DNA of 64,000 nucleotides from an uncultured Aquimarina sp. (GTDB lineage: Bacteria > Bacteroidota > Bacteroidia > Flavobacteriales > Flavobacteriaceae), in NCBI GenBank assembly GCA_947496555.1, contig CANMDH010000027.1:261-64260 (forward strand), given 5' to 3'. The notes beneath the pieces are model-generated. The model had not been told where the DNA came from. It saw nothing but the letters and a program-made list of their open reading frames with translations, and ran no database searches. Shown here in pieces: positions 39,519-56,906 of the stretch. Within the stretch, counting starts at the first letter, position 1; each line of letters starts with the position of its first letter. The translations under genes were made by a program, and so were the position numbers.

Positions 39519-41798
39519 TTATAATCTATAATTTATGTTAATCCCACCGTACATATTAAAAGGCAATCCTGAGTAAAAATATCTGGGAGCATTACCACCA
39601 AAACCTCTTGCGTTGATCTGAAGCTGAGATGCGTATTTGGCATCAAGTATATTGTTTGCTCCCAATGAGAGATCATAAAAGAAGTGGTTACCGATACTGT
39701 TTTTAAAACCAATTTTACCATGTAGCAACTCATAACGATCACTAAAAACGGTATTGGCGTCATTGGCAGGAATATTACCAACCGTTTGAAAGGTAAAATT
39801 GCCATAAAATCCTTTTATTGAAGTAAGATCCAGTCCCAGATTAATTACTTCTGATGGTACTCCTGTAAGATCGTTTCCAGAGAAATCATCATCTAGATCT
39901 ACGAATTCATCAAATGTATAATCGTTAATGGATGCATTAACAAAGAAGTTTAATTGATAGGGCGTTTTTCTTATAAGATTGTAGTTTAGCTCTGCTTCGA
40001 TACCATTATGAGTCGTTTTTCCTGCATTAATGGCAAAGAAGTTATCTTCAACTGTCCTTCTGGATACCAATAAGTCTCGAACTTTAAGCATATATAATGA
40101 TAAAGATCCATGAAGTTTTTCAAAAAACCAGAATCGTGTTCCCATTTCATAGTTCCAACCAATTTCGGGTTTGATGTCGGGATTAAAAATACCATCAGGC
40201 AAAAGTGTTTCAGAGGTAGTAGGAGTAGAGAACCCATGTGCCATATTTCCAAAAAGAATCAGATGGGGGTTTAGCTCATAATTAACTCCAAGTTTTGGTG
40301 AAAGTATGGGGTTAAAATCAAATGTTCCTGAACTATCATCGCCGTCAGACAAAAATCTATCTTCAATATCAAAAAACGTTTGATTGAGGTGTATCCCAAG
40401 ATTAAATTTCAACTTTTTGGAAACTCTATAATTTGCTTCAGCAAAAAGATTATAATAATATCGTTTTTCATCCAGATCAGAAAGTTGAATCCCTTGCACA
40501 CTTCCTGTTCCTATCGGGAAGTCTTCATAAAGGTTTTCGAATGTTTTTCCATTGTAAGTATCATAAAAAAGCTCACCACCAACCGTCCAACTCAGTTCTT
40601 TTTTTGCTAAAAGATGACGGCCTAAAACCCTGCTTCGTATCCCAAAACTATTTGACTTTTCTTCAAGAATGTTAAAAGGCCTGGGTTCGTAATTATTCCT
40701 AAAAGAACTAAAAATACTAGTATTATGAGTGAGTTTCGGATTGTAGATGTGTTTCCAAGTAATTCCCAGAATTCCGTAATCCACGTCTTCAAAAGCTTTA
40801 GAACGCCCCCAGGTAAAAGCCGCTTGTCTTGGTGTATTTTCAAAAGCCGATTGATCTAACGAACTAGGGATTCCTGCTTTCAAATTAATATAGCTCCCAA
40901 GTATCGTAAAGTTATTCTTCTTTCCGGCATCAATAGCAGAAGTAATAGTTACAGTATTTCGATCATATTCATTATTATCTCTGTATCCATCGGTATGATT
41001 GTTACTGTACAGAATATTAAGATTGTAATTCTCTTTTCCCAATGAAGCGTTGGCTAGTACTCTTTGTAATCCATAGCTTCCAAAAATAGATGAGATCGTA
41101 CCTTCTGTTATTTTGGAGCGTGTAAATTCTGGTTGTAATAATATGGTGCCACCAAGCCCTACACCATAGCTGCTAGAAGACGGGCCTTTATGTATTTCTA
41201 TACGAGATAAAGCCCCAAGTTCAAGGTCTTCGATAGAAGATTCTCCATTGCCATCGGTTAGCGGGATATCTCCAAAATATGCTCTAATGTTGGCCGTGCC
41301 AAATAGATTGCGAGCACCAATACCTCTTATAGAAATTCTATTGGTGTTAAGAGTTGCGTTTTGCATAAAAACACCGGGAATTCGGTTTAGAATTGGATGT
41401 AGCGCTATAGGGTTTCCTCTGTTTATATCTTGTGAAGAAATTACAGAAACGGCTTCAGTCGCTTCTTTATGTAGAATTGGAATGGCAATATTATTGATGA
41501 TTACTTCTTCGAGATCGGTGATTTTTTGGATGAGGGTTACCCTAATTTGTGTGCTAGTCGTAATCTCTTGTAGGGTATTGAAATATCCCTCCTTCGAAAC
41601 TTCAATTGTGCCATTAGCTACTATTGTAAAAGAGCCATTTGCATCGGTAAATACTTCTTTGCCTGATTTTTTATCTAGAATTTTAGCATTTTCAATTGGG
41701 GTATTGGTAGCATCGTCCAAAACTATTCCTGTGATATTATATTGTGAAAAAACAGGAAAGGTCGAAACAAGAATTAGGAGTACAAGTATTTTTTTCAA
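39519..41798 (-). CDS. TonB-dependent receptor with an N-terminal CarboxypepD_reg domain
   Basis: 759 aa. Signal peptide MKKILVLLILVSTFPVFSQ, with TTG as the start codon at 41798 and no in-frame ATG upstream. Plug region (VSVISSQDINRGN, LNRIPGVF) and a 22-strand-type barrel. Confidence 0.88.
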   Translation of the reverse strand: MKKILVLLILVSTFPVFSQYNITGIVLDDATNTPIENAKILDKKSGKEVFTDANGSFTIVANGTIEVSKEGYFNTLQEITTSTQIRVTLIQKITDLEEVIINNIAIPILHKEATEAVSVISSQDINRGNPIALHPILNRIPGVFMQNATLNTNRISIRGIGARNLFGTANIRAYFGDIPLTDGNGESSIEDLELGALSRIEIHKGPSSSSYGVGLGGTILLQPEFTRSKITEGTISSIFGSYGLQRVLANASLGKENYNLNILYSNNHTDGYRDNNEYDRNTVTITSAIDAGKKNNFTILGSYINLKAGIPSSLDQSAFENTPRQAAFTWGRSKAFEDVDYGILGITWKHIYNPKLTHNTSIFSSFRNNYEPRPFNILEEKSNSFGIRSRVLGRHLLAKKELSWTVGGELFYDTYNGKTFENLYEDFPIGTGSVQGIQLSDLDEKRYYYNLFAEANYRVSKKLKFNLGIHLNQTFFDIEDRFLSDGDDSSGTFDFNPILSPKLGVNYELNPHLILFGNMAHGFSTPTTSETLLPDGIFNPDIKPEIGWNYEMGTRFWFFEKLHGSLSLYMLKVRDLLVSRRTVEDNFFAINAGKTTHNGIEAELNYNLIRKTPYQLNFFVNASINDYTFDEFVDLDDDFSGNDLTGVPSEVINLGLDLTSIKGFYGNFTFQTVGNIPANDANTVFSDRYELLHGKIGFKNSIGNHFFYDLSLGANNILDAKYASQLQINARGFGGNAPRYFYSGLPFNMYGGININYRL

Positions 41799-41873: not shown

Positions 41874-41896
41874 CCAGTTTCAGAAAATGAAACTGG
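41874..41896. promoter_or_regulatory. perfect 8-bp hairpin CCAGTTTC-AGAAAAT-GAAACTGG upstream of the TonB receptor gene
   Basis: Seen directly in the sequence, 76 nt upstream of the TTG start. Function unknown. Confidence 0.25.
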
Positions 41897-41999: not shown

Positions 42000-42030
42000 T
42001 TTGTGGTTTGATAGTTTTGTTTTAAGTTTG
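42000..42030 (+). promoter_or_regulatory. candidate Bacteroidota sigma-A promoter: TTTG-N19-TAAGTTTG
   Basis: -33 TTTG at 42000-42003, a 19-nt spacer, then -7 TAAGTTTG at 42023-42030. It lies about 90 nt upstream of the 42120 ATG. Confidence 0.45.
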
Positions 42031-42049
42031 TGTAATCACAAATTTAATG

Positions 42050-42085
42050 CAGAAACGTAATGGGGGAATAAAAATATCGTTTCTG
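42050..42085 (+). promoter_or_regulatory. hairpin in the predicted 5' leader of the TPR/MORN operon
   Basis: CAGAAACG (42050-42057) pairs with CGTTTCTG (42078-42085) around a 20-nt loop. Confidence 0.3.
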
Positions 42086-42119
42086 TTCGCATTTCATCTA
42101 CTCTATTTTAGTCAAATTT

Positions 42120-45100
42120 ATGAAGAAAACAATGTTATTTGTGACGTTACTTACGTCTACGCTTTTTTATGCCCAAGAAAAAATTGAGTTTATAGATTAC
42201 TATGATATTATAGATGAAATATCTGAATTCAAGGAAAAACAAGACTATTCTAAGATGATAGAATATCTTGATAAAATTAGTCCAAATGATTCATTATATG
42301 AATCAGTTCTGGTAACAAAATCGTATTACCTTCTTCAGGACGAAAAATATGACGAGGCCATAAAAATAGCGGACACCGGATTAAAAATGCTCGATGGAGA
42401 AGAAAGATATTCTTTTTTGTTAAACAAAGGAGTAGCATTTCTTCGATCAGAAAGCTTTGAAGAAGCTCTAAAGGTGTATAATGATGCGATTAAAGAATTT
42501 CCTAAAAATCATATGTTGTTTTACAATCGTGCAATTGTATATGAAAAATTGGAAAAGCCGGATAAAGCGCTAAAGAATTATATACAATCTATTACCTTAA
42601 ATCCATTTTATGCAGATAGCCATTTACAGCTAGGCAAAATATGCTTTACCGAGAATAAGACCAGCCAGGCATTAATGGCACTTAATATGTACCTTTTATT
42701 GAATCCAGACGGAGAAAACTCTTTTGATATTCTTAATTCGGTCAACACATTAGTTTCAAAACAAAATGACGCGAAACCTACAGGGATTATGATATCTGAA
42801 GATGATGAAACGTTTGAAGATATCGATTTAATAATCAATAATAGAATAGCCCTTAATGCCAATTATAAAATAAAAAACAAAGTTAATATAGCGTTGACAA
42901 AACAAAATCATGCTCTTTTTGAACAGTTAGAAGAGTATGAAGGTAATGAAGGGTTTTGGGATAAGAAATATGTGCCATTTTATAAATGGGTTTTTGAAAA
43001 TAATCACTTCGATAATTTTACCTACACCATTTCTTATTCTATAAAGAACCCTGTTTTCAAAAAAGTGGTGGATAAGAATACTTCTGAAATAAAAACATTC
43101 ATCGATCTGGCATATGTCAAGTGGAAAGAGATTCTGAGTGATGACAATGAACAAATGTTCGAGGGGAAAAAACAAAAAATTGCTCAGGTATTTGAAGGGT
43201 TTAACCTTCAGGCAGTTGGTATAAGTAAAGAAGGTAAAAAAGTGGGGAATTGGGAGATGTATAACGAGCAAGGAAAACTTACCGGTAGAGGTAAATTTAA
43301 TGAAGAAGGAAAAAGAACAGGTGAATGGACCTGGTATGATGATCACGGAAGGGTTTCTGACAAGGAAAGCTATAAAGACGGATTGGTAGATGGAAAATAC
43401 ACTTCTTTTTATGATAATGGTAATGTTAATATAGCATGTAATTATAAAGAAGGAAACCTTGATGGAGAGTACAGAACGTATAATCAAAATGGAGCTTTGA
43501 TCGAGAAAAAAATATTCTCAAAAGATAAGCTGGATGGAGAGTATCGTTCTTTCCATGCAATTGGCGAATTGGCAAAGAACTATATAGTAAATTATAAAGA
43601 AGGTAATCCCGAAGGAGAACTAGAACAATATTACGCAAATGGAGAGCTTTTTAAGAAAAGAAGTTACAAAAATGGTAAGATTATTGGAAAAGAACAACTG
43701 TATTTTAACAATGGTACACTAAAAGCAGAATATACCTATATCGATGGGATATCTGAAGGACCCTACAGCACCTATCATAAAAATGGTACAAAATCTGAGG
43801 TAGGTACGACAAGTAAAGGATATTATAACGGCGAATGGAAGTTGTATTATCCCGATGGAACCATTATGAATGAATTTACATACAATGAAGGAGAATTAAA
43901 TGGTCCATATAAAGAATATGATATCGATGGTAAATTGCACTATGAATTTGTGTATCGAAATGACGAGTTTATAGAGCATAAACATTTTAATAAAACCGGA
44001 GAAATAATTAACGAAGCCAAGAAGAAAAAAGGAGCGTTTTATTATCAAGGATACTCTCCATTAGGCGATTTGGTAACCGAAGGTATGTACGATGTAAAAG
44101 GAGGAAAAAAGGGCGAATGGAAATATTATCAAAGTGGGGTCTTGGTCGACAAAGGGATCTATGATGATAATATGTTACAAGATAAGTACTTGGAGTTTTA
44201 TAAATCTGGGCAAAAAAAGGCGATTACAGAGTATAAAAATGATTCTTTGTCTGGGTATTATGTTAGCTATCATAAAAACGGTAACATTTCAAGGCAGGGT
44301 TGGCACAAAGATGGTACGAGTCACGGAACCTGGATCTCTTATTATTATGATGGTAAAATAAAAGAGAAGAAATTTTATCATAAAGGACAGCTACATGGGA
44401 TTCAGGAATATTATGGGGTCGAAGGAAAACTATATTCCAAAAGTAAATACAAGTTTGGAGATTTGGTTTTGGAAATCTTTTATGCTCCTAATGGAAATAT
44501 GTTACAAGAAGTAGTATATGATCAGAAACAGAAGAATCATACCTTATCAATAAAACAATATAATGGCAGTGTATATTCTACCACCGACTATTTGTATGGT
44601 GTGAAACATGGTAATTATGTGAGGTATAATTATGATGGAAAAAAGGCCATTGAAGGAGCATATTTTAATGGAAAGTTTCACGGTACCTGGAAATGGTACT
44701 ACGACAATGGGCAAATTAGCTTGCAGGGAGATTACTATCATGGAGAAACTATTGGAGAATGGAAAGAGTTTTATGAAGATGGTGAATTGGAAGAAAAGTA
44801 TACCTATGTTTCTGGGAAACTTGATGGAGTAGCTGAAGTTTACAGCGATGAAGGCGTACTTACCAGAACCACCCAATATAAAAATGGTAAACTTCATGGC
44901 GAAAGAAGGTTTTATAGCCCAGAAGGTAAATTGCAGTTAGTACGATATTACCATAATGATAAAATTATTGGATATAGCTATAATGATACTAGCGGAAAGC
45001 TTAAACCTATGATTCCGATTGAGAATTTTACCGGAGAGATTAAAGCCTTTTTTGATAATGGAAAACCATCTATCCAAATGGAATTCAAAAACGGAATGTT

Positions 45101-45398
45101 TGTAAATGAGTTTAGAGCGTATTATTATAATGGACAGCTAGAACGTAGTGCTGTATACAAAGACGGGGATAATCATGGGGCATATGTCTTTTACTATAAA
45201 GATGGTTCTGTTAAAAAAGAAATGAATTATCTTCATGATTTATTACAAGGCAAATACAAGAAATATTATCCAAACGGTAAAATAAAAGAAGAAAGAAACT
45301 ATTTAAATGATAGTCGTAGTGGTATAACTAAATATTTTGATGAGAACGGAAAACTAATTAAAGAACGCTCTTATTTCAATGATATTCAAGAAAAATAA
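42120..45398 (+). CDS. secreted TPR plus MORN-variant (YwqK-type) repeat protein
   Basis: 1092 aa. Signal peptide MKKTMLFVTLLTSTLFYAQ and TPR helices from about aa 40 to 200. From aa 376 to the C-terminus there are about 30 tandem copies of a roughly 23-aa G-x-W-x-x-Y-Y-x-N-G-x-(x)-K-x-E-x-x-Y-x-x-G-x-x-x-G repeat. Confidence 0.85.
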   Translation: MKKTMLFVTLLTSTLFYAQEKIEFIDYYDIIDEISEFKEKQDYSKMIEYLDKISPNDSLYESVLVTKSYYLLQDEKYDEAIKIADTGLKMLDGEERYSFLLNKGVAFLRSESFEEALKVYNDAIKEFPKNHMLFYNRAIVYEKLEKPDKALKNYIQSITLNPFYADSHLQLGKICFTENKTSQALMALNMYLLLNPDGENSFDILNSVNTLVSKQNDAKPTGIMISEDDETFEDIDLIINNRIALNANYKIKNKVNIALTKQNHALFEQLEEYEGNEGFWDKKYVPFYKWVFENNHFDNFTYTISYSIKNPVFKKVVDKNTSEIKTFIDLAYVKWKEILSDDNEQMFEGKKQKIAQVFEGFNLQAVGISKEGKKVGNWEMYNEQGKLTGRGKFNEEGKRTGEWTWYDDHGRVSDKESYKDGLVDGKYTSFYDNGNVNIACNYKEGNLDGEYRTYNQNGALIEKKIFSKDKLDGEYRSFHAIGELAKNYIVNYKEGNPEGELEQYYANGELFKKRSYKNGKIIGKEQLYFNNGTLKAEYTYIDGISEGPYSTYHKNGTKSEVGTTSKGYYNGEWKLYYPDGTIMNEFTYNEGELNGPYKEYDIDGKLHYEFVYRNDEFIEHKHFNKTGEIINEAKKKKGAFYYQGYSPLGDLVTEGMYDVKGGKKGEWKYYQSGVLVDKGIYDDNMLQDKYLEFYKSGQKKAITEYKNDSLSGYYVSYHKNGNISRQGWHKDGTSHGTWISYYYDGKIKEKKFYHKGQLHGIQEYYGVEGKLYSKSKYKFGDLVLEIFYAPNGNMLQEVVYDQKQKNHTLSIKQYNGSVYSTTDYLYGVKHGNYVRYNYDGKKAIEGAYFNGKFHGTWKWYYDNGQISLQGDYYHGETIGEWKEFYEDGELEEKYTYVSGKLDGVAEVYSDEGVLTRTTQYKNGKLHGERRFYSPEGKLQLVRYYHNDKIIGYSYNDTSGKLKPMIPIENFTGEIKAFFDNGKPSIQMEFKNGMFVNEFRAYYYNGQLERSAVYKDGDNHGAYVFYYKDGSVKKEMNYLHDLLQGKYKKYYPNGKIKEERNYLNDSRSGITKYFDENGKLIKERSYFNDIQEK

Positions 45399-45407
45399 TT
45401 GTTGATT

Positions 45408-47336
45408 ATGAAGAAGATTTTATTTTTTGCAGGAATGATCATGTTACTTCCTTTGCAGGCAAAGGCACAGAAATCTCCTGTTTATGAATTGTACAAGCAA
45501 AAATATCCAGATGCGCATGCGGTCAGGTTGCTAGAAGAAAGAAAAATAGACATTAGTCTTGAAGACAATGAGATATTGATCACGCAAGATATTTTCGAAG
45601 AAGATTTATATCTAGATAAAGCAGCAACCTATGGTTCTAAAAGATCTATAAATTATTCTTCATTTTTTGATATAGAATCTGTAGAAGCTTCTTCGCTTTT
45701 ATATGAGAACGGAAAGTATAATGAACTTGAGGTAAAAGATTTTATCGAAAAAGATGAAATGGATGGATCTTTTTATGATGATAGTAGATCTATTAATTTT
45801 ATTTACCCAAGTCTTCAACCAGGAGCAAAATCCAAGCTTAAGTATAGAGAAAAAATCAAAAACCCTAGATTTTTGAACTCATTTTATTTTGCAGATTTCA
45901 AACCTATTGTCAAAAGTAAAGTAACCATTAGTGTTGATAAAGAGATATCTCTAAAGTTTAAAGAATTTAATACAGATAGTGTAAATATTAGTTTCACTGA
46001 AAAAGAAAAAAGAGGGAAAAAGATTTATACCTGGGAAGCTAATGATATTGATGAATATGACCTGGATAGAGGAGCTCCTAATTTCAGAAATACTTTTCCT
46101 CATATCATACCGATAATAACCGAATATGATTCAGGTGATAAAAAGGTAAAGCTTCTCGATAACGTTTCAGATTTGTATGGATGGTATTATTCACTTGTGA
46201 AAGATGTAAATACTGAAGAAGCAGACGAAGAGCTTAAGAAAATTGTAACCATTCTTACACAGAACAAAAAAACAGATCTTGAGAAGGTAAAGGCAATTTA
46301 TTATTGGGTACAAGAAAATATTAAATACATTGCTTTTGAGTATGCACTTGGAGGATTTATACCCAGAGAGGCAAATGATGTATTCAACAAAAAGTATGGT
46401 GATTGTAAAGATAATTCCAGCATTCTGTATAAAATGTTAGATATAGCCGGTCTCAAAGGTAATCTTACCTGGATAGGAACACGCAGTATTCCTTACAAGT
46501 ATAAAGAGGTACCAACACCTGCCGTAGATAATCATATGATATTGTCCTATATAGAAGGAGATGAGGTTTATTTTCTGGATGCTACCGGTCGATATATCCC
46601 TATTGATATGCCATCTTCATTCATTCAGGGTAAGGAGGCGTTGATTTCAATTAATGAAAAAGAATTTAAGATTAAGGAAGTCCCCATAATGGACTCCAAA
46701 AGAAATACTATTGTAGATTCTACCTTTATCAGAATCGAAGACAAAGTGATTAAGGGAACGGGAAATTTTAAGTTATCTGGATACCCAAAAATCGATTTCT
46801 TCAATGCATTAGAGACAGAAAAAAATGAAAAAGAACTAAAGGACCTGTATACACGAGAACTTAGAAAAGGAAACAACAAGTTTTTAATCGATGGCTTTAA
46901 AGAAACGAATAAGTACGATTATGATAAGGATTTTCTGGTTGAGTACACATTCAATATCAAGGATTATGTAAATGGACTTGAGGATGAAACTTTTATTAAC
47001 CTTAACCTTGATAGAAAACTTAGTGGATTAAAATCCAAAAAGGATCGTAAAAATGATAGGGAATATCGTTACAAGTCGAACGAAAAGTTTATTACTACGC
47101 TGGAGGTTCCCAAGGGTAAAATTGCAGATTATATTCCCGAAAATTTCAAGGTATCTAATAATTTTTTCAGTTGCTCTATAACATATACTCAAAAAGATAA
47201 CACTATCATATATAAACTGGAAACAAATCTTGATTTTATATTGCTTACACTTGATCAGCAAAAAGAATTAAATAAACTTATTAAGAAGGTTGAAAAAAAC
47301 TTTAAAGAAGTCATTATTTTAAAAGATAAAAAATAA
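45408..47336 (+). CDS. DUF3857 domain plus transglutaminase-like cysteine protease domain protein
   Basis: The track start at 45399 is a TTG. The ATG at 45408 gives the signal peptide MKKILFFAGMIMLLPLQAKAQ. Transglutaminase-core triad candidates: Cys in YGDCKD (46404-46406), His in DNHMIL (46533-46535) and Asp in FLDAT (46578-46580). Confidence 0.85.
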   Translation: MKKILFFAGMIMLLPLQAKAQKSPVYELYKQKYPDAHAVRLLEERKIDISLEDNEILITQDIFEEDLYLDKAATYGSKRSINYSSFFDIESVEASSLLYENGKYNELEVKDFIEKDEMDGSFYDDSRSINFIYPSLQPGAKSKLKYREKIKNPRFLNSFYFADFKPIVKSKVTISVDKEISLKFKEFNTDSVNISFTEKEKRGKKIYTWEANDIDEYDLDRGAPNFRNTFPHIIPIITEYDSGDKKVKLLDNVSDLYGWYYSLVKDVNTEEADEELKKIVTILTQNKKTDLEKVKAIYYWVQENIKYIAFEYALGGFIPREANDVFNKKYGDCKDNSSILYKMLDIAGLKGNLTWIGTRSIPYKYKEVPTPAVDNHMILSYIEGDEVYFLDATGRYIPIDMPSSFIQGKEALISINEKEFKIKEVPIMDSKRNTIVDSTFIRIEDKVIKGTGNFKLSGYPKIDFFNALETEKNEKELKDLYTRELRKGNNKFLIDGFKETNKYDYDKDFLVEYTFNIKDYVNGLEDETFINLNLDRKLSGLKSKKDRKNDREYRYKSNEKFITTLEVPKGKIADYIPENFKVSNNFFSCSITYTQKDNTIIYKLETNLDFILLTLDQQKELNKLIKKVEKNFKEVIILKDKK

Positions 47337-47349
47337 CAAAAAGTAGAAA

Positions 47350-49326
47350 ATGAAGATATTAAAACTAATAGTAATTGTATTAGGCTTACTTACTACCAAT
47401 ATGTTTGCTCAAAAATCACCTTTTTATGAAGTGTATACTTGGCAAGAAAAACCTATTGAAAATATTGAATTAGATAAATTTAAGGATAAGGATATTGTAG
47501 CATTCAAGGATAAGACTGTAAATGAGTTCTTTTTTATAAATGAAAATGCTTTGGTTGAGTATTCTTTAGTGCATAAGATGTATTGGTTAAACTCTAATGA
47601 TAAGATTGAGGAATATAATAAAGTGTATCTTCCGTATTCGGCAGGGTCTGAAGTTGTTAAAAATAAGGCACGTGTAATAACAGCTGACGGAAAAATACAA
47701 GAACTAGATGATTCAAAAATTTTAACGGCCAAAGATGACGAAACTCAAAGGACCTATAAGTATTATGCCCTCGAAGGGGTAGAAAAGGGAAGTTTTATAG
47801 AGTATTATTATGTGGTTAAAAAGTATCCTGATTATACTGGAAACAGGATAACATTACAATCGGATATTGATAAACAAAATATCGAGTTTGATCTAATTGC
47901 ACCCGTAAATTTGATCTTTAAATCAAAGAGCTATAATGACTTGCCACAAATGGTTAGGGATACCACAAATACCGAAAAAAATCATTGGAAATTACATTTG
48001 GAGGAGCTTGAAGGGTTAGAAGATGAAGAACAGGCTCCATATAAGGCAATGGCCAAATATTTGATCTATAAATTAAAAAATAATTCAGCAAACCCTTCAA
48101 ATGATATTGTTACATATGGTATTGTTTCTCAAAATATTTATGGTTCTATATATGCCGAAAATGATAATAAGATAAATAGTAAACTCAATAAGTTTGTAGC
48201 ATCAATAGATGGAGCAAAAGATGAGGATTTGGCTCAAAAAATTAGAGCCATCGAAAATTACATAAAAACTAATGTATTTGTAACAGAGGTAAAACGAGAG
48301 GACCTTGAAGATTTGTCCAGTATTATAGATAATAAAGTTGCCAGCGAGTCTGGAGTGGTTAAGCTATACGGTGCTATTTTTAATGCATTAGATATTAAAC
48401 ATCAAATTGTTTTAACTAGTGATCGTAGAGAGCTTAAATTTGATAAATCGTTTGAAGCGTATAACTTTTTACAAGAATATTTGATTTATTTTCCTAAAAT
48501 CAAATTGTATATGGCACCCACAAAGTTAGAATCCAGACTTGGTTATCCACCTGGTTATCTAACAGATAATTATGGCCTGTTTATAAAACAAGTTACTTTG
48601 GGCGGTTTTACATCGGGTGTGGGAAGTGTAAAGTACATCAAACCCGTAAATTATGATAAGACCAATTACAACTTGGTGATGAATGTAAACTTTGATAGCG
48701 AAGACCTTACTATTACAAACCTAAAAATGGATCGTACTATGGATGGGTATTATGCTGTTTTTGTACAACCTTTTATGGATATTGCAAAGCAAGAGGATAA
48801 AGACGAAATGGCAGACGGAATTATCAAATCTATCAATGAGAATGTAGAAATAGTTGAAAAGAAAATGTTTAATGACTCCTCCAAAGATTTTGGTAACAAA
48901 CCTCTACAAATAATTGCAGATATAAAGTCTGAAGAGTTTGTTGAGAAGGCGGGTAATAAATATCTTTTCAAAGTAGGAGAGTTATTGGGTCCTCAGCAGG
49001 AAATGTATCAGGAGAAAGCTCGAATTCTGCCTGTAGAAAATGAATTTGAAAGAAGTTACGATAGAAAAATAATCGTTGAAATTCCTGAAGGATACCAGTT
49101 CAAGAATTTAGATAATATTAATATGGATGAATCTTATAAGGAAGATGATGAGGAATTATTCATGTTTAAATCTTCTTATGAAATAAAAGATAATCAACTT
49201 GTTATAGCCATTAAAGAATACTATAATAAAAATATTATAGGCGTTCCGATTTATGAAGAATATAGGACCGTTATTAATAGTGCTGCTAATTTTAATAAAG
49301 TAACATTAGTATTAGAGAAGAATTAA
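47350..49326 (+). CDS. DUF3857/DUF3858-type paralog lacking the transglutaminase catalytic triad
   Basis: 658 aa with a signal peptide. By eye it is collinear with the preceding protein, but the triad positions read Ser (ASESG), Leu (NFLQEY) and Ala (YMAPT). Confidence 0.8.
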   Translation: MKILKLIVIVLGLLTTNMFAQKSPFYEVYTWQEKPIENIELDKFKDKDIVAFKDKTVNEFFFINENALVEYSLVHKMYWLNSNDKIEEYNKVYLPYSAGSEVVKNKARVITADGKIQELDDSKILTAKDDETQRTYKYYALEGVEKGSFIEYYYVVKKYPDYTGNRITLQSDIDKQNIEFDLIAPVNLIFKSKSYNDLPQMVRDTTNTEKNHWKLHLEELEGLEDEEQAPYKAMAKYLIYKLKNNSANPSNDIVTYGIVSQNIYGSIYAENDNKINSKLNKFVASIDGAKDEDLAQKIRAIENYIKTNVFVTEVKREDLEDLSSIIDNKVASESGVVKLYGAIFNALDIKHQIVLTSDRRELKFDKSFEAYNFLQEYLIYFPKIKLYMAPTKLESRLGYPPGYLTDNYGLFIKQVTLGGFTSGVGSVKYIKPVNYDKTNYNLVMNVNFDSEDLTITNLKMDRTMDGYYAVFVQPFMDIAKQEDKDEMADGIIKSINENVEIVEKKMFNDSSKDFGNKPLQIIADIKSEEFVEKAGNKYLFKVGELLGPQQEMYQEKARILPVENEFERSYDRKIIVEIPEGYQFKNLDNINMDESYKEDDEELFMFKSSYEIKDNQLVIAIKEYYNKNIIGVPIYEEYRTVINSAANFNKVTLVLEKN

Positions 49327-49358
49327 AATGATTTAGGATATTTAAGATGTATATATTT

Positions 49359-49391
49359 AAAAAAGGTGGAACTATAGCTTCCATCTTTTTT
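49359..49391 (+). terminator. rho-independent (bidirectional-type) terminator after the three-gene operon
   Basis: AAAAAAGGTGGAA, a 7-nt loop (CTATAGC), then TTCCATCTTTTTT. The stem has one G:U pair. An A-tract precedes it and a T-tract follows. It begins 33 nt after the stop at 49326. Confidence 0.7.
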
Positions 49392-49558
49392 ATTTTCAAT
49401 TATGAAAACTTCGATTTGAAGTTTCAATGAATAAGAAAAACCGACCATAATAACACAAAGCAACTATATTGGTATGCTTCACTTTAAAAAATTGGAATGC
49501 TACATTTTAGAAGATCTTAAATAGCTTTGTTCATTAGGCTATTCATAATATATGTAAT

Positions 49559-49566
49559 TATATTTG
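49559..49566 (+). promoter_or_regulatory. candidate -7 box (TATATTTG) for the acylase gene
   Basis: Exact TAnnTTTG match 18 nt before the ATG at 49585. A second match, TAGCTTTG, lies at 49522-49529. Confidence 0.3.
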
Positions 49567-49584
49567 ATTAAACTTCTGATACCT

Positions 49585-51762
49585 ATGAAATACATTTATT
49601 TTATTTTAATACTTGTAGCGACTGCTTGTACTAAAGAACCACAAACAGAATTATCCCGTTGGGAAACTCATAGTGCCAATACCGAGATCATTAGAGATAA
49701 TTTCGGAGTCCCGCATATTTATGGAAAAACTGATGCAGATGCTGTATTTGGTTTATTATATGCTCAATGTGAAGATGATTTTAATCGTGTTGAAAGAAAT
49801 TATATTTGGGCCATCGGTCGACTTGCCGAGGTGGAAGGAGAAGAAGCAATTTATAGCGACCTCAGAGCAAGATTATTTATGACCAAAGAGGAAGCTATAC
49901 AGCGCTATGAGACTAGTCCCGAATGGTTAAAAAAACTTTGCGTAGCCTTTGCAGACGGAATTAATTATTACTTGTATAAACATCCAGAGGTTAAACCAAA
50001 ATTATTGACACATTTTGAGCCCTGGATGCCGATGTATTTTAGTGAAGGATCTATAGGAGGAGACATCGAACGTATATCCACAAAAGATATCGAAAAATTT
50101 TATGAAAAAGAACCCTCATCGGTTTTAGCAAGTAAAATTAATGATGGGCTCATACGCCTTGCAGATAATGAGCCAAGAGGTTCTAATGGATTTGCTATTT
50201 CAGGAAAATTAACAACATCAGGCAATGCTATGCTACTTATTAATCCACATACATCATTTTTCTTTCGTGGAGAAGTACATATGGTAAGTGAAGAAGGCTT
50301 AAATGCCTATGGAGCTGTTACCTGGGGACAATTTTTTGTCTATCAAGGATTCAACGAAAAAACGGGGTGGATGCATACTTCAACATATACCGATGTCATA
50401 GATAGTTTTATCGAAACTATTGTAAAGAATGAAAATGGATTGAAATATAAATATGGTGATGAACTTCGACCTGTTGAGACATTGGATGTTACCCTTAAAT
50501 ATAAAGAAGATGGAGTAATTAAAGAACGTAACTTTCCGGTGTACCGAACCCATCACGGTCCAATCACTCATGCAATTGATAAGAAATGGGTAGCAACAGC
50601 GATGATGTGGGATCCTGTAAAAGCCTTAACCCAGTCTTTTACTAGGACAAAATTAAATGGACATAAAGAGTTCAAAGAAATGATGAATATACGAACAAAC
50701 TCTTCCAATAATACGGTATACGCTGATGCAGAAGGAAATATAGCCTATTACCATGGTAACTTTATTCCGATAAGAAATGTAAAATATGACTATACGATGC
50801 CAGTAGATGGTAGTGACCCATCTACAGATTGGAAAGGATTACATACGGTAGATGAATCTATCACGGTGTTTAATCCTGCTAATGGATGGATACAAAACTG
50901 TAATTCTACACCTTTTACAAGCGCTGCAGAATACAGTCCAAAAGCTGAAGATTACCCCAGATATATGTCACGAAATCATGAAAATTTTCGAGGTGTGCAT
51001 GCAATACGATTATTAGAAAAAACTAAGGGATTAACGTTGGATAAATTGATTGAAATGGCATACGATCCCCATTTACCGGCTTTTGAAGTATTAATTCCAG
51101 GACTGATAGCTGCATATGATACATCTTCGGATCCTGATAAATCTTTAAATGAACCTATTGAAGTATTAAGAAACTGGGATTTTGCCGTGTCCAAAGAATC
51201 GGTGGCTATGTCATTGGCTCATTATTATGGCACTCATTATTTACAGGAGGGGAAAGCTCCTGAAAAGCTGAGTTTTATGGAACGGGTAAACTACTTTAGT
51301 GTAGCATCTCCAAAAGAAGAGCGAATTGCTATTTTTAAAAAAGCAGTAACCAAACTAACTGAAGACTTTGGTAGCTGGAATACTCAATGGGGCGATATTA
51401 ACCGTTATCAAAGACTTAATGGAGCGATCAGGCAACCTTTTGATGATAATAAACCTAGCATTGGCGTAGGTTTGGCTTCAGGCAGATGGGGAGCGCTGGC
51501 TTCATTTGGTGCTAGAGCTTATGAAGGTACCAAACGCATGTATGGGACATCGGGTAATAGCTTTGTTGCTGTGGTAGAATTTGGTGATAAGATAAAGGCA
51601 AAAAGTTTGCTCGCTGGTGGTCAAAGCGGACATCCTGATTCTCCGCATTTTGACGATCAGGTTCAACGGTATGTGGATGTAAATTTTAAAGATGTCGCTT
51701 ATTACCGAGAAGACGTAGAAAAAAGATCAAAAGCCGTATATCATCCAGGAAAGGAGAAGTAA
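49585..51762 (+). CDS. penicillin acylase family Ntn-hydrolase (AHL-acylase-like), lipoprotein
   Basis: The ATG at 49585 gives the lipobox LILVATAC, whereas the track start at 49564 is a TTG. The N-terminal FGVPHIYG motif and the autoproteolytic site RGSNGFAISG (Ser nucleophile) are typical of the family. Confidence 0.88.
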   Translation: MKYIYFILILVATACTKEPQTELSRWETHSANTEIIRDNFGVPHIYGKTDADAVFGLLYAQCEDDFNRVERNYIWAIGRLAEVEGEEAIYSDLRARLFMTKEEAIQRYETSPEWLKKLCVAFADGINYYLYKHPEVKPKLLTHFEPWMPMYFSEGSIGGDIERISTKDIEKFYEKEPSSVLASKINDGLIRLADNEPRGSNGFAISGKLTTSGNAMLLINPHTSFFFRGEVHMVSEEGLNAYGAVTWGQFFVYQGFNEKTGWMHTSTYTDVIDSFIETIVKNENGLKYKYGDELRPVETLDVTLKYKEDGVIKERNFPVYRTHHGPITHAIDKKWVATAMMWDPVKALTQSFTRTKLNGHKEFKEMMNIRTNSSNNTVYADAEGNIAYYHGNFIPIRNVKYDYTMPVDGSDPSTDWKGLHTVDESITVFNPANGWIQNCNSTPFTSAAEYSPKAEDYPRYMSRNHENFRGVHAIRLLEKTKGLTLDKLIEMAYDPHLPAFEVLIPGLIAAYDTSSDPDKSLNEPIEVLRNWDFAVSKESVAMSLAHYYGTHYLQEGKAPEKLSFMERVNYFSVASPKEERIAIFKKAVTKLTEDFGSWNTQWGDINRYQRLNGAIRQPFDDNKPSIGVGLASGRWGALASFGARAYEGTKRMYGTSGNSFVAVVEFGDKIKAKSLLAGGQSGHPDSPHFDDQVQRYVDVNFKDVAYYREDVEKRSKAVYHPGKEK

Positions 51763-51774
51763 TTCTTGTGTTAA

Positions 51775-51796
51775 TAATAAGTTTGAAAACTTGTTA
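51775..51796. terminator. weak AT-rich hairpin between convergent genes
   Basis: TAATAAGTT, TGAA loop, AACTTGTTA (one G:U pair). It lies between the acylase stop (51762) and the M1 stop (51857). Confidence 0.25.
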
Positions 51797-51856
51797 TGGA
51801 AAGCTAAACAATTCTCTACTTAATAAATACCACCTGATAAATGATCGATACAAACA

Positions 51857-53722
51857 TTATTTGATTGTAAAGAGGATATTATCTCTTGGATTTGTATCAG
51901 GGATGTAATCATTCCCTAATTGTATTTTTTCAATTCCCTTCGTTGTCTTGACTGTGAGGATCATGTTGTCTTTTTCTTGCCAAACCTTAGCAGAGTGATG
52001 AATACTTTGTGTTGTTTGATCTTTAAAAGTTATGGTTACGTCCAAAGGCACAGGAAGATCTCCTATTTTTTTTACAGTAATTTCATATACATTATTTCTT
52101 TCTTCTACTTGGGCAATACCCAAATCGGGATATCCGTTTTCAAAAAACCACTTTTTCCAAAACCAGTTTAAGTTTTGCTGAGATGTTTCATTTACATTGT
52201 AAAAAAAATCTAATGGAGTAGGATGTTTTCCTTTCCATGTTTCTATATAAGTGGCCAAACATTGCTTGAATAATTCTTTCCCCAGTATATCTTGCAAAAC
52301 ATATAATCCTACAGCTGGTTTCATATAGAAATTGAAATAGGAAGTTCTGCCTTTTAGCATGGTAGATTTGGTAGTAGATGCAATATTCGTATTAGTGTTT
52401 GCATAGGAGCTCATATTTCTGGCGTAACGTGTTAACCGATTTAATGAAGGTTCTTGTTTTTGCTGATACTCGTATGGGATCATTGCTGCAAATGCTTCAT
52501 CCATCCAGGCATGTTCTGTTTCATTGGTCAATACGTAAAATGGAAAATAATTATGAGCAATTTCATGGGCAGTGACATCTACGGTTCGGCCTCTGTTATC
52601 GGCCGAGGGATCATTTGCAATCATAGGATACTCCATACCACTGGCTCCGTTGGTACCATTAAATATGGTCATCGTTGGAAAGGGGAAAGGGTATGGAAGT
52701 TCATTTGAAAAGTAACGAATAGATTTTTTTGCTAAAAGCGCTACTTCGGTAAAATCTTTAGAATCAATCGGATAGGCGGTTTCTATAAAAATATTATTTC
52801 CGGAAACACCCTTTAATGATGTTCCATCCCAAAGGAAATGATCGCTCACACCAAAAGCCACATCAGAAACATTATTCGCTTTAAACACCCATTTATTATG
52901 AGACGTTATATGTTTTTCTGACGTGTAATCATCTTGATGTACTATCGAAATAATATCATCGCTTTTCTGAGCTAGTTTATAGTTATTATATATGTTTGGT
53001 GATAATACTTTTTCTGCATTTTGCAGCAGTCCAGAACCCCAAACCAGGTAGTCATCAGGTACTGTAACCGTATACTCATAATCACCGAGATCATAATAAA
53101 ATTCCTGTCCTCCGGTATGTATATTTTCGTCCCAGCCATTGATATCATCGTACACTGCAATTTTTGGGTACCACTGTCCCAGAAAGAAAGAAGTTTCATC
53201 TTTTGCCCCCATTCGGATATTACTTTTGGTAGGAATTGAAAAAACCCAGCTTAATTCAATATTAATCAATTCTGAAGGGAATATAGGTTGAGTAGGTTTT
53301 GCTATAATAAGAGTTCCTTCTGTACTATAATCCTTAATAAGTTCATCGCCAATTTTAAGCCGTTTGATCAAAACCCCAGAGTGAACATCATCTGGATGGA
53401 CTGGGTCATCTCGACGACTTCCTTTTTTATACAAATTTTGAAAAACGTGAAAAACGATCTGATGGAGTGTATCTGGACTATTGTTTTGGTACTTTATTAT
53501 TTCGGTACCAATTAGTTCTTTTTTTTGAGGGATAACTTCTGCATTAATCGTGTATGAAGCCGTGTTTTGCCAGTATTGTGTGCCTGGTATTCCTTTGGCT
53601 GTTCGAGTTCCTCTTTTAATGGCATCAGAAAAACTCTTGCTCATCGGTAATTTTTGCTGACTTACACCAACAAAAATTAAAAGAAACATAAAACTACAAC
53701 ATAGTACCTTTTTATAGAACAT
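51857..53722 (-). CDS. secreted M1 family (gluzincin) metallopeptidase
   Basis: 621 aa with a signal peptide. HEIAH, then exactly 18 residues, then E (WMDEAF), which is the HExxH-X18-E motif. Confidence 0.88.
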   Translation of the reverse strand: MFYKKVLCCSFMFLLIFVGVSQQKLPMSKSFSDAIKRGTRTAKGIPGTQYWQNTASYTINAEVIPQKKELIGTEIIKYQNNSPDTLHQIVFHVFQNLYKKGSRRDDPVHPDDVHSGVLIKRLKIGDELIKDYSTEGTLIIAKPTQPIFPSELINIELSWVFSIPTKSNIRMGAKDETSFFLGQWYPKIAVYDDINGWDENIHTGGQEFYYDLGDYEYTVTVPDDYLVWGSGLLQNAEKVLSPNIYNNYKLAQKSDDIISIVHQDDYTSEKHITSHNKWVFKANNVSDVAFGVSDHFLWDGTSLKGVSGNNIFIETAYPIDSKDFTEVALLAKKSIRYFSNELPYPFPFPTMTIFNGTNGASGMEYPMIANDPSADNRGRTVDVTAHEIAHNYFPFYVLTNETEHAWMDEAFAAMIPYEYQQKQEPSLNRLTRYARNMSSYANTNTNIASTTKSTMLKGRTSYFNFYMKPAVGLYVLQDILGKELFKQCLATYIETWKGKHPTPLDFFYNVNETSQQNLNWFWKKWFFENGYPDLGIAQVEERNNVYEITVKKIGDLPVPLDVTITFKDQTTQSIHHSAKVWQEKDNMILTVKTTKGIEKIQLGNDYIPDTNPRDNILFTIK

Positions 53723-53819
53723 TTTTAAATTTTTTAATCATTTAAGATTCATATACCTGATTCTAGGTGTATTTTTCATGAGCATTGTCCCTGTAAATCT
53801 TAGTGCTGACAACGCAATA

Positions 53820-56800
53820 TTATTCTAAATTCTTTTTGACCTTCGCAAATTCAACTTTTAAATGTTCAAAACGCATTTCGGCTTCTTTTCCAGGTAACTG
53901 ATCTGCATTACTGATCATATGATACAAATACATAATCTGATCAACCAGCATTGGCTTTGGGTAAGCGCCATCATCATTTTTTAATTGTTTAAGTACTTTT
54001 TCTACTTTTTTTAATCTTTCTGATGATTGGTTCTTTTCTTTCAACTTAATCACTTCGGTTTCCAGAGTGTCTTGAAACTTACGTGCTGCTGTAAGAAGTT
54101 CGCTAATTTCTTGTTGCTTTTCAATTTGCAAAACTATATCTTCTTTGGATACCCCATTGGCTTTTACCCTGGGATCGATTAAAAGTTCAAATGTTTGTTC
54201 TATAACGTTAGTATTCGTGCTTAATCTAACGGTGTAAATTCCCGGAGCTGCAATGGGTCCATTTTGAAATCTTCTAGAAACCTCTTTTGCCCATGGGCCG
54301 GAATGTCTTAAGTTCCAATTAAAACGATTTAAACCAGGTGTGTTGCTCAACGATTTGTCGACTAGATAAATGGTTTCATTAGTACTCATTGTACTTACAA
54401 CATTTTCAATTAATTTTGGTTTGGTTGTATCACTAACGTATGTCGCAATAATTATTTTATTAGCATTAAGAATATCTAGTTTTACACTAGTTTTATGATC
54501 TTTTGGTATATAATAATCAATAGCAACATTAGCTTGTGGATACACAGGAAATGTAGTTTGGCCATTACGTATCTTCGGATAACGATATCTTATCGTATTA
54601 TCCGGTTTAAATAACCAGGGAGAACTTCCTAGTTTATTGATTTCGGCTTGTCTTAACGAAGTGATATTATCCAATATCCAAAAAGAACGACCCATAGTAC
54701 TTACAATAAGGTCACCACGATAGATTTTAATATCGGTTACCGGCGTAACCGGCAAATTTTGCTGAAATGATTGCCATTTTTTACCATCATCGAATGAAAT
54801 AAACAATCCAAATTCTGTGCCCGCATACAATAGGCCTTCTCTTATAGGGTCTTCTCTTATTACCCGCGTTGGAAAATCAGCAGGAATACCATTACTGTCA
54901 GTGGTAATTAATTCCCAGGTTTTCCCATAATTCTCAGTTTTGTAAATATAAGGCTTTTCATCTCCCAATTGATATCGTAATATAGATACGTAGGCTTTTG
55001 CCGAATTATGAGAAGACGGCTCAACAGCATCAACCCGACCACCTTCTGGTAATTTAGATGGGGTAACGTTTGTCCATGTTTTTCCTCCATCTTTAGTAAG
55101 TTGAACTAGACCATCATTCGACCCTGTCCAAATTAATCCTTCTTTAATTTTAGATTCTCTGATAGAGTACAAGGTGCTATAATATTCTTCACCAGTAATG
55201 TCTCGGGTTATGGGGCTACCAGAAATAACTTGTTTGTCTTCCTCGAACGCTGTTAAATCTGGTGAAATTGTTTGCCAGGTTAATCCATCATCGGTCGTTT
55301 TGTGTAGATACTGGGAACCGTGATAGACGGTATTGGGATTATGTGGTGATATATGAATAGGAGCTACTCGCTGAAAGCGATATCGTAAATCTTTTGGATT
55401 ATGGCCATAGATATTGCTTGCACCAACATAGTATCCTTTTTCAACACTTGTTCGTTTATCAAAAACATTAAAACGTCCCTTACAGTTTGAATATACTATA
55501 GAATGATTTCCAGGTTTGGGTACTGCAGGTCCAGTTTCGCATCCTCCGGTATTTATAATCCAGCCAACTCCGGTATTTTGGATGGCACTTGGCGCAAAAC
55601 TTGGTACTGCGATAGTAGTATAATTATCCTGTTGACCGGCATACAACCAATAAGGGTACTGGTCATCAACTTCTACTTGGTAAAGTTCTGCTGTAGGTTG
55701 GTTAAACTGGCTTGACCATGTTTTACCCCCATTGTGAGTTACATTGGCACCCCCATCATTGGATTGAATAAATAACTCAGGATTATCTGGATTGATCCAG
55801 ATATCATGATTATCCCCATGTGGAGGCTTCATCTTAGTCCATGTTTTACCCCCATCGATAGATTTTAACATTGGGTTTGCCATTGAATATACTATTTCAG
55901 GGTTTTTAGGATCGACTTCAACGTTGGTATAATAAAAAGGTCTATTTACTAAACCTGCTTCATTTGATACCTGTTCGAAAGATTTGCCTTGATTTTCAGA
56001 TTTATACAGGCCCCCTTCTTTTCCCGGAGCCTCAATAATAGCATATAGGATACTTGAATCGACTGGTGACACTGCCAAATCTATCTTTCCTATTAATCCT
56101 TGAGGCAGGCCTTGACTTAGTTTTTTCCAGGTTTTTCCACCGTTTACTGATTTATAGATACCTCCTTCGCTCGTATCACCCCCAGAAACGATAGTCCATG
56201 GTTTGCGCTGAGCTTTCCATGCTGCTGCATAAACCACCTCAGGATTACCTGGCAACAATTCTAAATCAGCAAAGCCAACTTCATCAGAAATAAAAAGAAC
56301 TTTTTCCCAGGAGACTCCACCGTCTATAGTTTTGTAAATACCACGTTCAGAGTTGGATTTAAATGCATTACCAATAGCTGCAACCCACACAATGTTATGA
56401 TTTGTAGGATCTATTTCTACTGCACCTATATGTCCAGTATTCTTTAAACCTATATGCTGCCATGTTTTTCCTGCGTCAATTGATTTATACATTCCTTTAC
56501 CGGTAATAACGTTACTTCTAAGACCGTCAGAACCAGTACCCACATAAACAATATTAGCATCATGATGTGCTACGCCAATATCACCTATCGATGGCGTTGC
56601 GAAGTACCCATCAGAAACATTCTTCCATGAGGTGCCATAGTCTTCGGTTTTCCAAACTCCGCCACCTGAAGCTCCAAGATAAAAAGTTGAAGGTGTGGTT
56701 GGAGCCCCAGTAACTGCTGTTACACGACCACCTCTTCCGGGACCAACAGTTCTGTATTTCAATGCGCTAAAATTCTGTGCTATTATCTCTTGGGCACCTA

Positions 56801-56843
56801 AAAAGAGTAATAAACAAAAAATAATGTCATTTGTTATCCTCAT
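53820..56843 (-). CDS. secreted BNR/Asp-box repeat protein (sortilin/VPS10-like double propeller)
   Basis: About 11 Asp-boxes (SxDxGxTW-like): TEDYGTSW, SIDAGKTW, TIDGGVSW, SVNGGKTW, SIDGGKTW, HNGGKTW, TTDDGLTW, TKDGGKTW, TENYGKTW and SFDDGKKW, among others. The ATG at 56843 gives a signal peptide (MRITNDIIFCLLLFLGAQEIIAQ). The track start is 56894. Confidence 0.85.
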   Translation of the reverse strand: MRITNDIIFCLLLFLGAQEIIAQNFSALKYRTVGPGRGGRVTAVTGAPTTPSTFYLGASGGGVWKTEDYGTSWKNVSDGYFATPSIGDIGVAHHDANIVYVGTGSDGLRSNVITGKGMYKSIDAGKTWQHIGLKNTGHIGAVEIDPTNHNIVWVAAIGNAFKSNSERGIYKTIDGGVSWEKVLFISDEVGFADLELLPGNPEVVYAAAWKAQRKPWTIVSGGDTSEGGIYKSVNGGKTWKKLSQGLPQGLIGKIDLAVSPVDSSILYAIIEAPGKEGGLYKSENQGKSFEQVSNEAGLVNRPFYYTNVEVDPKNPEIVYSMANPMLKSIDGGKTWTKMKPPHGDNHDIWINPDNPELFIQSNDGGANVTHNGGKTWSSQFNQPTAELYQVEVDDQYPYWLYAGQQDNYTTIAVPSFAPSAIQNTGVGWIINTGGCETGPAVPKPGNHSIVYSNCKGRFNVFDKRTSVEKGYYVGASNIYGHNPKDLRYRFQRVAPIHISPHNPNTVYHGSQYLHKTTDDGLTWQTISPDLTAFEEDKQVISGSPITRDITGEEYYSTLYSIRESKIKEGLIWTGSNDGLVQLTKDGGKTWTNVTPSKLPEGGRVDAVEPSSHNSAKAYVSILRYQLGDEKPYIYKTENYGKTWELITTDSNGIPADFPTRVIREDPIREGLLYAGTEFGLFISFDDGKKWQSFQQNLPVTPVTDIKIYRGDLIVSTMGRSFWILDNITSLRQAEINKLGSSPWLFKPDNTIRYRYPKIRNGQTTFPVYPQANVAIDYYIPKDHKTSVKLDILNANKIIIATYVSDTTKPKLIENVVSTMSTNETIYLVDKSLSNTPGLNRFNWNLRHSGPWAKEVSRRFQNGPIAAPGIYTVRLSTNTNVIEQTFELLIDPRVKANGVSKEDIVLQIEKQQEISELLTAARKFQDTLETEVIKLKEKNQSSERLKKVEKVLKQLKNDDGAYPKPMLVDQIMYLYHMISNADQLPGKEAEMRFEHLKVEFAKVKKNLE

Positions 56844-56906
56844 AAATTTGTTTTTATGCTCGAGTTTAGCATTAAATGGAATTGTTTTATTCATTACTTT
56901 ATAGAA

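Follow-up and report, generated by a model that had tools for sequence, protein, structure and literature searches.

The stretch of DNA analysed here, called the window throughout, comprises 64,000 nucleotides of an uncultured Aquimarina sp. from the family Flavobacteriaceae (assembly GCA_947496555.1, contig CANMDH010000027.1, forward-strand positions 261 to 64,260) and carries, at positions 42120–49326 of its plus strand, three consecutive genes that we refer to as g1, g2, and g3. According to the open reading frame (ORF) list and Pfam, g1 (42120–45398, plus strand) encodes a TPR-MORN protein of 1092 amino acids (aa), g2 (45408–47336, plus strand) a transglutaminase-like protein of 642 aa, and g3 (47350–49326, plus strand) a protein of 658 aa, related to g2 at the fold level, that has lost the catalytic residues. 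The original prediction for this locus, made from the DNA sequence alone, had described a self-contained operon with gene junctions of 9 and 13 nt; the three ORFs and both gaps are as claimed and their coordinates are exact, the first gap being counted to the ATG at 45408 as the start of g2. The mechanically called ORF of g2 begins at an in-frame TTG at 45399, right after the g1 stop codon (interval 45399–45407), and the ATG at 45408 is, judging from its translation, the more likely start, yielding the conserved MKKILFF signal peptide. The comparisons presented in this work establish the triad as a genuine, so far uncharacterised module with clear boundaries and deep conservation, kept together in many marine Bacteroidota and made of known domain families, in which no new kind of chemistry is apparent.

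A scan based on g2, with one genome per species, yielded 407 confirmed stretches, of which the 80 best, from approximately 25 genera of Flavobacteriaceae, were analysed for gene content by tblastn and by independent clustering of ORFs, which were in agreement. Among these best 80 of 407, g2 and g3 were found in 79 loci each, whereas 76 loci had g1, and in every case the genes followed the order g1-g2-g3 on a single strand. Theirs are the only families common to the 80 loci, the next commonest neighbour family being present in 14 of 80 at most. The closest named matches to g2 come from Aquimarina (86% identity to A. gracilis), and orthologues at 52–60% identity appear in many genera of Flavobacteriaceae. 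The genes that flank the triad in the window (for a TonB receptor, a penicillin amidase, and an M1 peptidase) reappear beside it in no genomes but those of the three closest Aquimarina. A constant triad within changing flanks indicates that the unit passes between genomic contexts as a block, and it bears out the self-contained character that had been proposed for it. Membership of the unit was also considered for the adjacent TonB-dependent receptor and penicillin amidase and rejected, given their conservation only in the closest Aquimarina.

Co-occurrence of the three genes outside this genome had been set beforehand as the point on which the proposed unit depended. Besides the 80 loci, nine distant representatives of the g3 type (approximately 31–39% identity to g3) were examined for their genomic context, and the full triad was found in 76 of the former and in six of the nine distant lineages (L083/84, L085, L086, L087, L092, and L093), an outcome in favour of the unit. 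These distant triads comprise a TPR plus MORN_2 protein of 1085–1115 aa, a DUF3857/transglutaminase protein of approximately 640 aa, and the g3-type protein, at approximately 32% identity (down to 31–34%), and their stop and start codons often overlap (e.g., in L083, L087, and L093). When compared with close relatives, all three genes have dN/dS values of 0.03–0.11 (0.03–0.06 for g3), dS being saturated and the values approximate. Purifying selection is strong on the whole set, and the constraint on the dead g3 equals that on g2.

The product of g2 matches the Pfam families DUF3857 (PF12969, 66.7 bits, cut-off 24.6) and Transglut_core (PF01841, 30.7 bits, cut-off 23) and has a putative DUF3858-like domain that comes just under the cut-off for DUF3858 (PF12970, 26.5 bits, cut-off 27). 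Its predicted catalytic codons, on the plus strand, are those of Cys333 (46404–46406), His376 (46533–46535), and Asp391 (46578–46580). The three residues are invariant in 18 of 18 aligned orthologues, and the GDCKD motif is present in 79 of 79. Both the domain pairing of DUF3857 with a transglutaminase core and the intact Cys-His-Asp triad of the original prediction hold. In the AlphaFold model of g2 (pLDDT 81), Cys333 appears just before helix 336–346, His376 on strand 375–383, and Asp391 after strand 386–390. In this way g2 shares the profile, the triad in canonical order, and its structural context with the transglutaminase-like superfamily (PF01841, clan CA), which includes PNGase, LapG, 3ISR from Cytophaga hutchinsonii, and the vasohibins (PMC4866520), whereas flanking DUF3857/DUF3858 domains and a dead paralogue as partner are absent from the characterised members. 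Among Pfam families, no LapG/BTLCP match was obtained for g2, and neither g2 nor g3 matched any NCBIfam model. Within the superfamily, vasohibin is an enzyme that requires a non-catalytic partner.

By contrast with g2, the only Pfam match of g3 is DUF3857 (38.7 bits, cut-off 24.6), with no match to either Transglut_core or DUF3858. As a relative of g2 at the fold level, it comprises a DUF3857 domain, a degenerate core of the transglutaminase-like type, and a C-terminal domain. The g3 of the window contains no Cys at all, and at the positions equivalent to the triad its orthologues have N/S, F/Y, and S/A, without any conserved Cys, His, or Asp, the equivalence between g2 and g3 being based on secondary-structure register together with the absence of Cys. 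Distant g3-type proteins likewise have no triad residues at the equivalent positions. The replacement of all three catalytic residues had been correctly anticipated. The term paralogue that came with it applies at the level of profile and fold, but not at that of BLASTP, which detects nothing significant between g2 and g3 past the N-terminus. With hhalign the two proteins give a full-length collinear alignment (E 4e-4, probability 34%), and the same comparison limited to the catalytic cores failed (E 0.77); the AlphaFold models, that of g3 with a pLDDT of 88, display the same order of secondary-structure elements. No match to g3 was found among PDB sequences. The protein has invariant motifs of its own (LTSDR..FD, LYQEKxRxLPVEN, and a C-terminal VINAAADFNK), a pattern of conservation that suggests a binding surface. 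A profile search for the g3 family retrieved 1992 cluster representatives (at 50% identity), 794 of them at E<=1e-30 and all of these approximately 650–690 aa long; the best 150 matches are full-length, and some members come from Cytophagales and other Bacteroidia metagenome-assembled genomes (MAGs).

The top Foldseek match in the PDB is, by a wide margin, the same for both models, namely 3KD4 (E 6e-29 for g2 and 1e-23 for g3), with TM-scores normalised to the target of 0.72 and 0.68 over alignments of 619 and 648 columns, respectively. This structure (BDI_1141 from Parabacteroides distasonis, a structural-genomics "putative protease") is the one on which the Pfam families DUF3857 and DUF3858 are based, and it appears to share the three-domain fold of g2 and g3, although it is shorter (505 aa versus approximately 650), only 10–14% identical, and comes from a type of locus without the TPR-MORN gene. 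In the sequence alignment 3KD4 has a Pro at the position of the catalytic Cys of g2 (YGTPLE versus YGDCKDN) and so corresponds to the dead member of the pair and not to the active one; the label of 3KD4 as a protease is, on this alignment, probably misleading. Relatives of 3KD4 in gut-type metagenomes (L088 and L090) are found directly downstream of a gene for a DUF3857 plus Transglut_core protein of 651–655 aa, which is 25% identical to g2 (E 1e-13) and has Cys, His, and Asp in place. The 3KD4-type gene thus follows an active gene in the same relative position as g3 follows g2. The tandem of an active and a dead gene accordingly predates the split between Flavobacteriia and Bacteroidia, and it is older than g1. 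In both contigs the gene resembling 3KD4 is broken into two ORFs (6603–8197 in L088 and 7001–8696 in L090), by either a frameshift or an assembly error. The next Foldseek matches, which cover the N-terminal domain only and with very low TM-scores, are beta-sandwich domains of M1 aminopeptidases/LTA4H, OST1/ribophorin, and ITIH1, and no function was read from them.

The largest protein of the triad, g1, has a signal peptide (aa 1–18, followed by Q), a TPR region at approximately aa 37–200, an unassigned linker, and MORN_2 repeats from approximately aa 370 to 1090. MORN_2 (PF07661, 164 bits, E 8e-51), TPR_1 (51.7 bits), and several other TPR families score above their cut-offs, and the repeat region has a period of 23–24 aa that corresponds to approximately 30 MORN_2 units, which is the architecture and the length of 1092 aa that had been described. 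The length of the orthologues is nearly constant (10th percentile 1090, median 1096, and 90th percentile 1099 aa), which points to a structural function with a set number of repeats and not to a variable adhesin. Among PDB sequences only the MORN repeats of SET7/9 matched this region, and within NCBIfam the LIC20035 model was matched partially (113 bits, cut-off 250). With the known MORN_2 or TPR proteins of the envelope (the Leptospira adhesin of the LIC20035 family, YwqK, or periplasmic TPR assembly factors) g1 has in common a strong MORN_2 signal and this partial match, and the likeness of its TPR part to periplasmic TPR lipoproteins and assembly factors is only generic. Unlike them, g1 reaches no equivalog cut-off, and only in this operon family is TPR combined with approximately 30 MORN_2 repeats at a fixed size of approximately 1095 aa.

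A large repeat protein encoded directly upstream of a transglutaminase-like enzyme could also be the substrate of that enzyme instead of a scaffold, with g2 cleaving or cross-linking g1 and g3 acting as regulator. There are precedents for both activities, since LapG is a periplasmic transglutaminase-like protease that cleaves the repeat adhesin LapA, and the Tgl of Bacillus cross-links coat proteins. The composition of g1, rich in Lys (12%) and containing Gln, is consistent with such a role, as is the joint conservation of g1 and g2 in 76 of the 80 loci. However, Bacteroidales and two Flavobacterium MAGs have g2-g3 pairs that lack g1, so g1 cannot be a universal substrate; g2 does not match LapG/BTLCP, and the Sec signal peptide is the only signal for secretion or anchoring in g1. 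We consider this explanation quite improbable.

All three proteins appear to be exported. As judged by eye, the signal peptides end at FYA↓QEK in g1, AKA↓QKS in g2, and MFA↓QKS in g3, and they are kept in the orthologues, where all end in A or S followed by Q, in support of the signal peptides foreseen for the whole set. Such a Gln after the cleavage site (the "Q-rule") has been described for substrates of signal peptidase I in Bacteroidota (PMC5837995). No lipobox Cys was seen by eye in the three N-termini, and the NCBIfam models for the C-terminal sorting domain of the type IX secretion system (TIGR04183/TIGR04131) found none in the three proteins. The presence of signal peptides, together with the lack of a lipobox and of this sorting domain, points to the periplasm, and g1, g2, and g3 are most likely soluble periplasmic proteins. 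A DUF3857 protein of Tannerella, found in the proteome of outer-membrane vesicles, is also predicted to be periplasmic (PMC10682907).

The same features bear on a possible toxin-immunity or other conflict system. The only trait of the locus in its favour is the MORN_2 domain of g1, a domain whose proteins carry the name "YwqK family antitoxin" in NCBI annotation, and transglutaminase-like domains do occur in some toxins. On the other hand, all three proteins are exported by Sec and have no delivery domains, the sampled relatives are confined to Bacteroidota, and the fixed architecture and strong purifying selection run directly contrary to the variability that polymorphic toxin loci typically display. 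The PADLOC models for anti-phage defence gave no match either, and this interpretation was rejected as extremely improbable.

Regarding the signals around the operon, a promoter-like motif of the Bacteroidota type, TTTG-N19-TAAGTTTG, is located on the plus strand at 42000–42030, 89 nt upstream of the g1 ATG. The window is AT-rich and has six occurrences of this motif versus 3.9 expected, so that, taken by itself, the motif is no rarer than expected by chance. The -7 box is kept in the three closest Aquimarina relatives (L001, L002 with one change, and L068), and the whole leader is conserved in the three nearest Aquimarina genomes, with variable sequence just upstream. Further away, the strict motif precedes g1 in only six of 73 orthologous loci and the -7 box alone shows no enrichment across them (20 versus 22 in the reverse-complement control), hence the promoter call is not generalisable. 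What persists of the predicted promoter is a motif with a -7 box kept in three relatives, and a promoter at 42000–42030 may be described as plausible but unproven. The leader hairpin that had been proposed next to it fared worse. An inverted repeat is indeed present on the plus strand at 42049–42086 (9-bp stem and 20-nt loop, dG -9.9 kcal/mol), but its stability does not exceed that of shuffled sequence (z -0.3), even if close relatives conserve the sequence itself; the arms CAGAAAC/GTTTCTG are kept in four Aquimarina, with no compensatory changes present to test.

At the other end, the terminator scan located on the plus strand, 32 nt past the g3 stop codon, an intrinsic-terminator-like hairpin (49358–49392) with an A-tract, a 14-bp stem, and a T-tract. 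With a dG of -14 kcal/mol and a z of -3.8 (0 of 200 shuffles fold as well), the terminator of the original prediction is real as a hairpin, and in 35 of 79 related loci a similar hairpin with a T-run is found after g3. The Rfam search of the window gave no match. Upstream of the operon there is a TonB-dependent receptor gene (39519–41798, minus strand), divergent from g1, and in the space between both genes we found a perfect 9-bp palindrome, CCAGTTTCA-GAAAA-TGAAACTGG (41874–41896, dG -12.6 kcal/mol, z -4.5), which is not positioned as a terminator for either of them. It is kept in three of four Aquimarina (the window, L001 with changes, and L068) and could be a regulator binding site. Downstream, the penicillin-amidase gene (49564–51762) opens a run of genes for exported hydrolases that extends over 49564–58517 and includes, apart from the penicillin amidase, an M1 peptidase, a Sortilin/BNR-repeat protein (1024 aa), and an M20-like protein. 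This run is not conserved alongside the triad.

Taking these features as a whole, we propose, tentatively and with somewhat less than even confidence, that the three genes encode a co-transcribed periplasmic module in which g2 would be the enzyme, g3 its pseudoenzyme partner, and g1 a scaffold, acting on amide bonds of proteins or peptides. The genes would form one co-transcribed unit, probably with translational coupling, as suggested by the gaps of 9 and 13 nt, the conserved order, the overlapping stop and start codons of the relatives, and the presence of a terminator only after g3. The catalytic subunit would be g2, a clan CA thiol enzyme whose Cys-His-Asp triad would attack an amide bond of a protein or peptide substrate, with hydrolysis, deamidation, or transamidation as possible outcomes. 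The ancient dead paralogue g3, which has kept the fold, would most likely pair with g2 for substrate recognition or regulation, and g1, added in lineages of the Flavobacteriia type, may be a scaffold that recruits or positions either the g2-g3 pair or the substrate. Co-transcription, periplasmic location, a physical complex, and the class of substrate are all elements that we infer. The envelope-located machine for processing or cross-linking envisaged in the original prediction likewise stays a hypothesis as regards its assembly, its chemistry, and its location. A comparable case is that of the M16 peptidases, whose alpha and beta subunits form heterodimers of an enzyme and a pseudoenzyme. 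The likeness lies in the tandem of active and inactive genes with the same fold and size, kept by purifying selection, while the M16 fold is unrelated to that of g2 and g3, which are putative heterodimer partners.

Several observations weigh against this proposal. In three of the nine distant loci (L081, L082, and L091) the g3-type gene has no adjacent g2, which means that g3 may act alone, and g1 is missing from the Bacteroidales loci and from two Flavobacterium MAG loci in which g2 and g3 are present. The claim of a three-gene unit is sustained as regards the conserved triad, but the obligatory core is the g2-g3 tandem, which reaches Bacteroidales without g1, and g3-type genes also occur solo. 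In addition, the region of the catalytic Cys in g2 is poorly modelled (pLDDT <50 for residues 307–336), and the literature offers no substrate or activity for any DUF3857 protein.

The solo genes have different surroundings. In a Cytophagales MAG (L081, 3408–7403) the g3-type gene is divergent to one encoding a MORN_2 protein of 633 aa without TPR, with no g2 in view; this adjacency of g3 and MORN suggests a link independent of g2, and supports the association of the families. In a Bacteroidia MAG (L082, 8001–12510) the solo g3-type gene shares a 4-nt overlap with the first gene of a pair of M16 peptidases, a pair which is itself of the active/inactive type and is followed by two unannotated genes and a glycosyltransferase cluster, a context that makes a link of g3-type proteins to periplasmic peptide processing possible. 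The solo gene of L091 has unrelated neighbours.

With g3-type genes alone or beside M16 peptidases in some lineages, the three proteins might also function independently of one another in the periplasm and have no more than a promoter in common, with g2 as an amidase for nutrient peptides or glycopeptides (PNGase-like or a peptidase), g3 as a binding protein, and g1 as a TPR/MORN protein of a generic kind. A window neighbourhood rich in peptidases and with a TonB-dependent receptor would suit this explanation, and so would the resemblance of the N-terminal domains of g2 and g3 to the beta-sandwich N-domain of M1 aminopeptidases. Yet conservation of the triad does not extend to these flanking genes for peptidases and the receptor, while order, spacing, and lengths remain constant over very large evolutionary distances, something unusual for unrelated functions. 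It is in our view unlikely, although it is the alternative to which we give most weight.

The module just proposed could be carried further, into a claim that we put forward as clearly speculative and doubtful, namely that g2-g3 is an unrecognised and widespread enzyme-pseudoenzyme machine of the Bacteroidota periplasm that carries out one particular post-translational step on proteins of the envelope, for instance their proteolytic maturation, their deamidation, or their cross-linking through isopeptide bonds, and that in lineages of the Flavobacteriia type it would work on a TPR-MORN "ruler" of fixed length that could span much of the periplasm.

In the full-text literature, with subscription journals outside coverage, no function was found for the triad, in line with the original prediction, whose author knew of none. 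DUF3857 and DUF3858 appear there only in table entries or passing mentions, and 3KD4 only as an HHpred match in the paper on vasohibins (PMC4866520). Proteins with DUF3857 abound in Bacteroidota, where they range from marine flavobacteria to Bacteroidales of the gut and mouth. This work shows that they come as a conserved tandem of active and dead proteins, that the only crystal structure available, 3KD4, corresponds to the dead partner, and that many lineages add a TPR-MORN protein of fixed length, so that scattered "domain of unknown function" labels are converted into a defined three-component system. If the pair does modify or process envelope proteins, it would be a new element of the cell-envelope biology of Bacteroidota.

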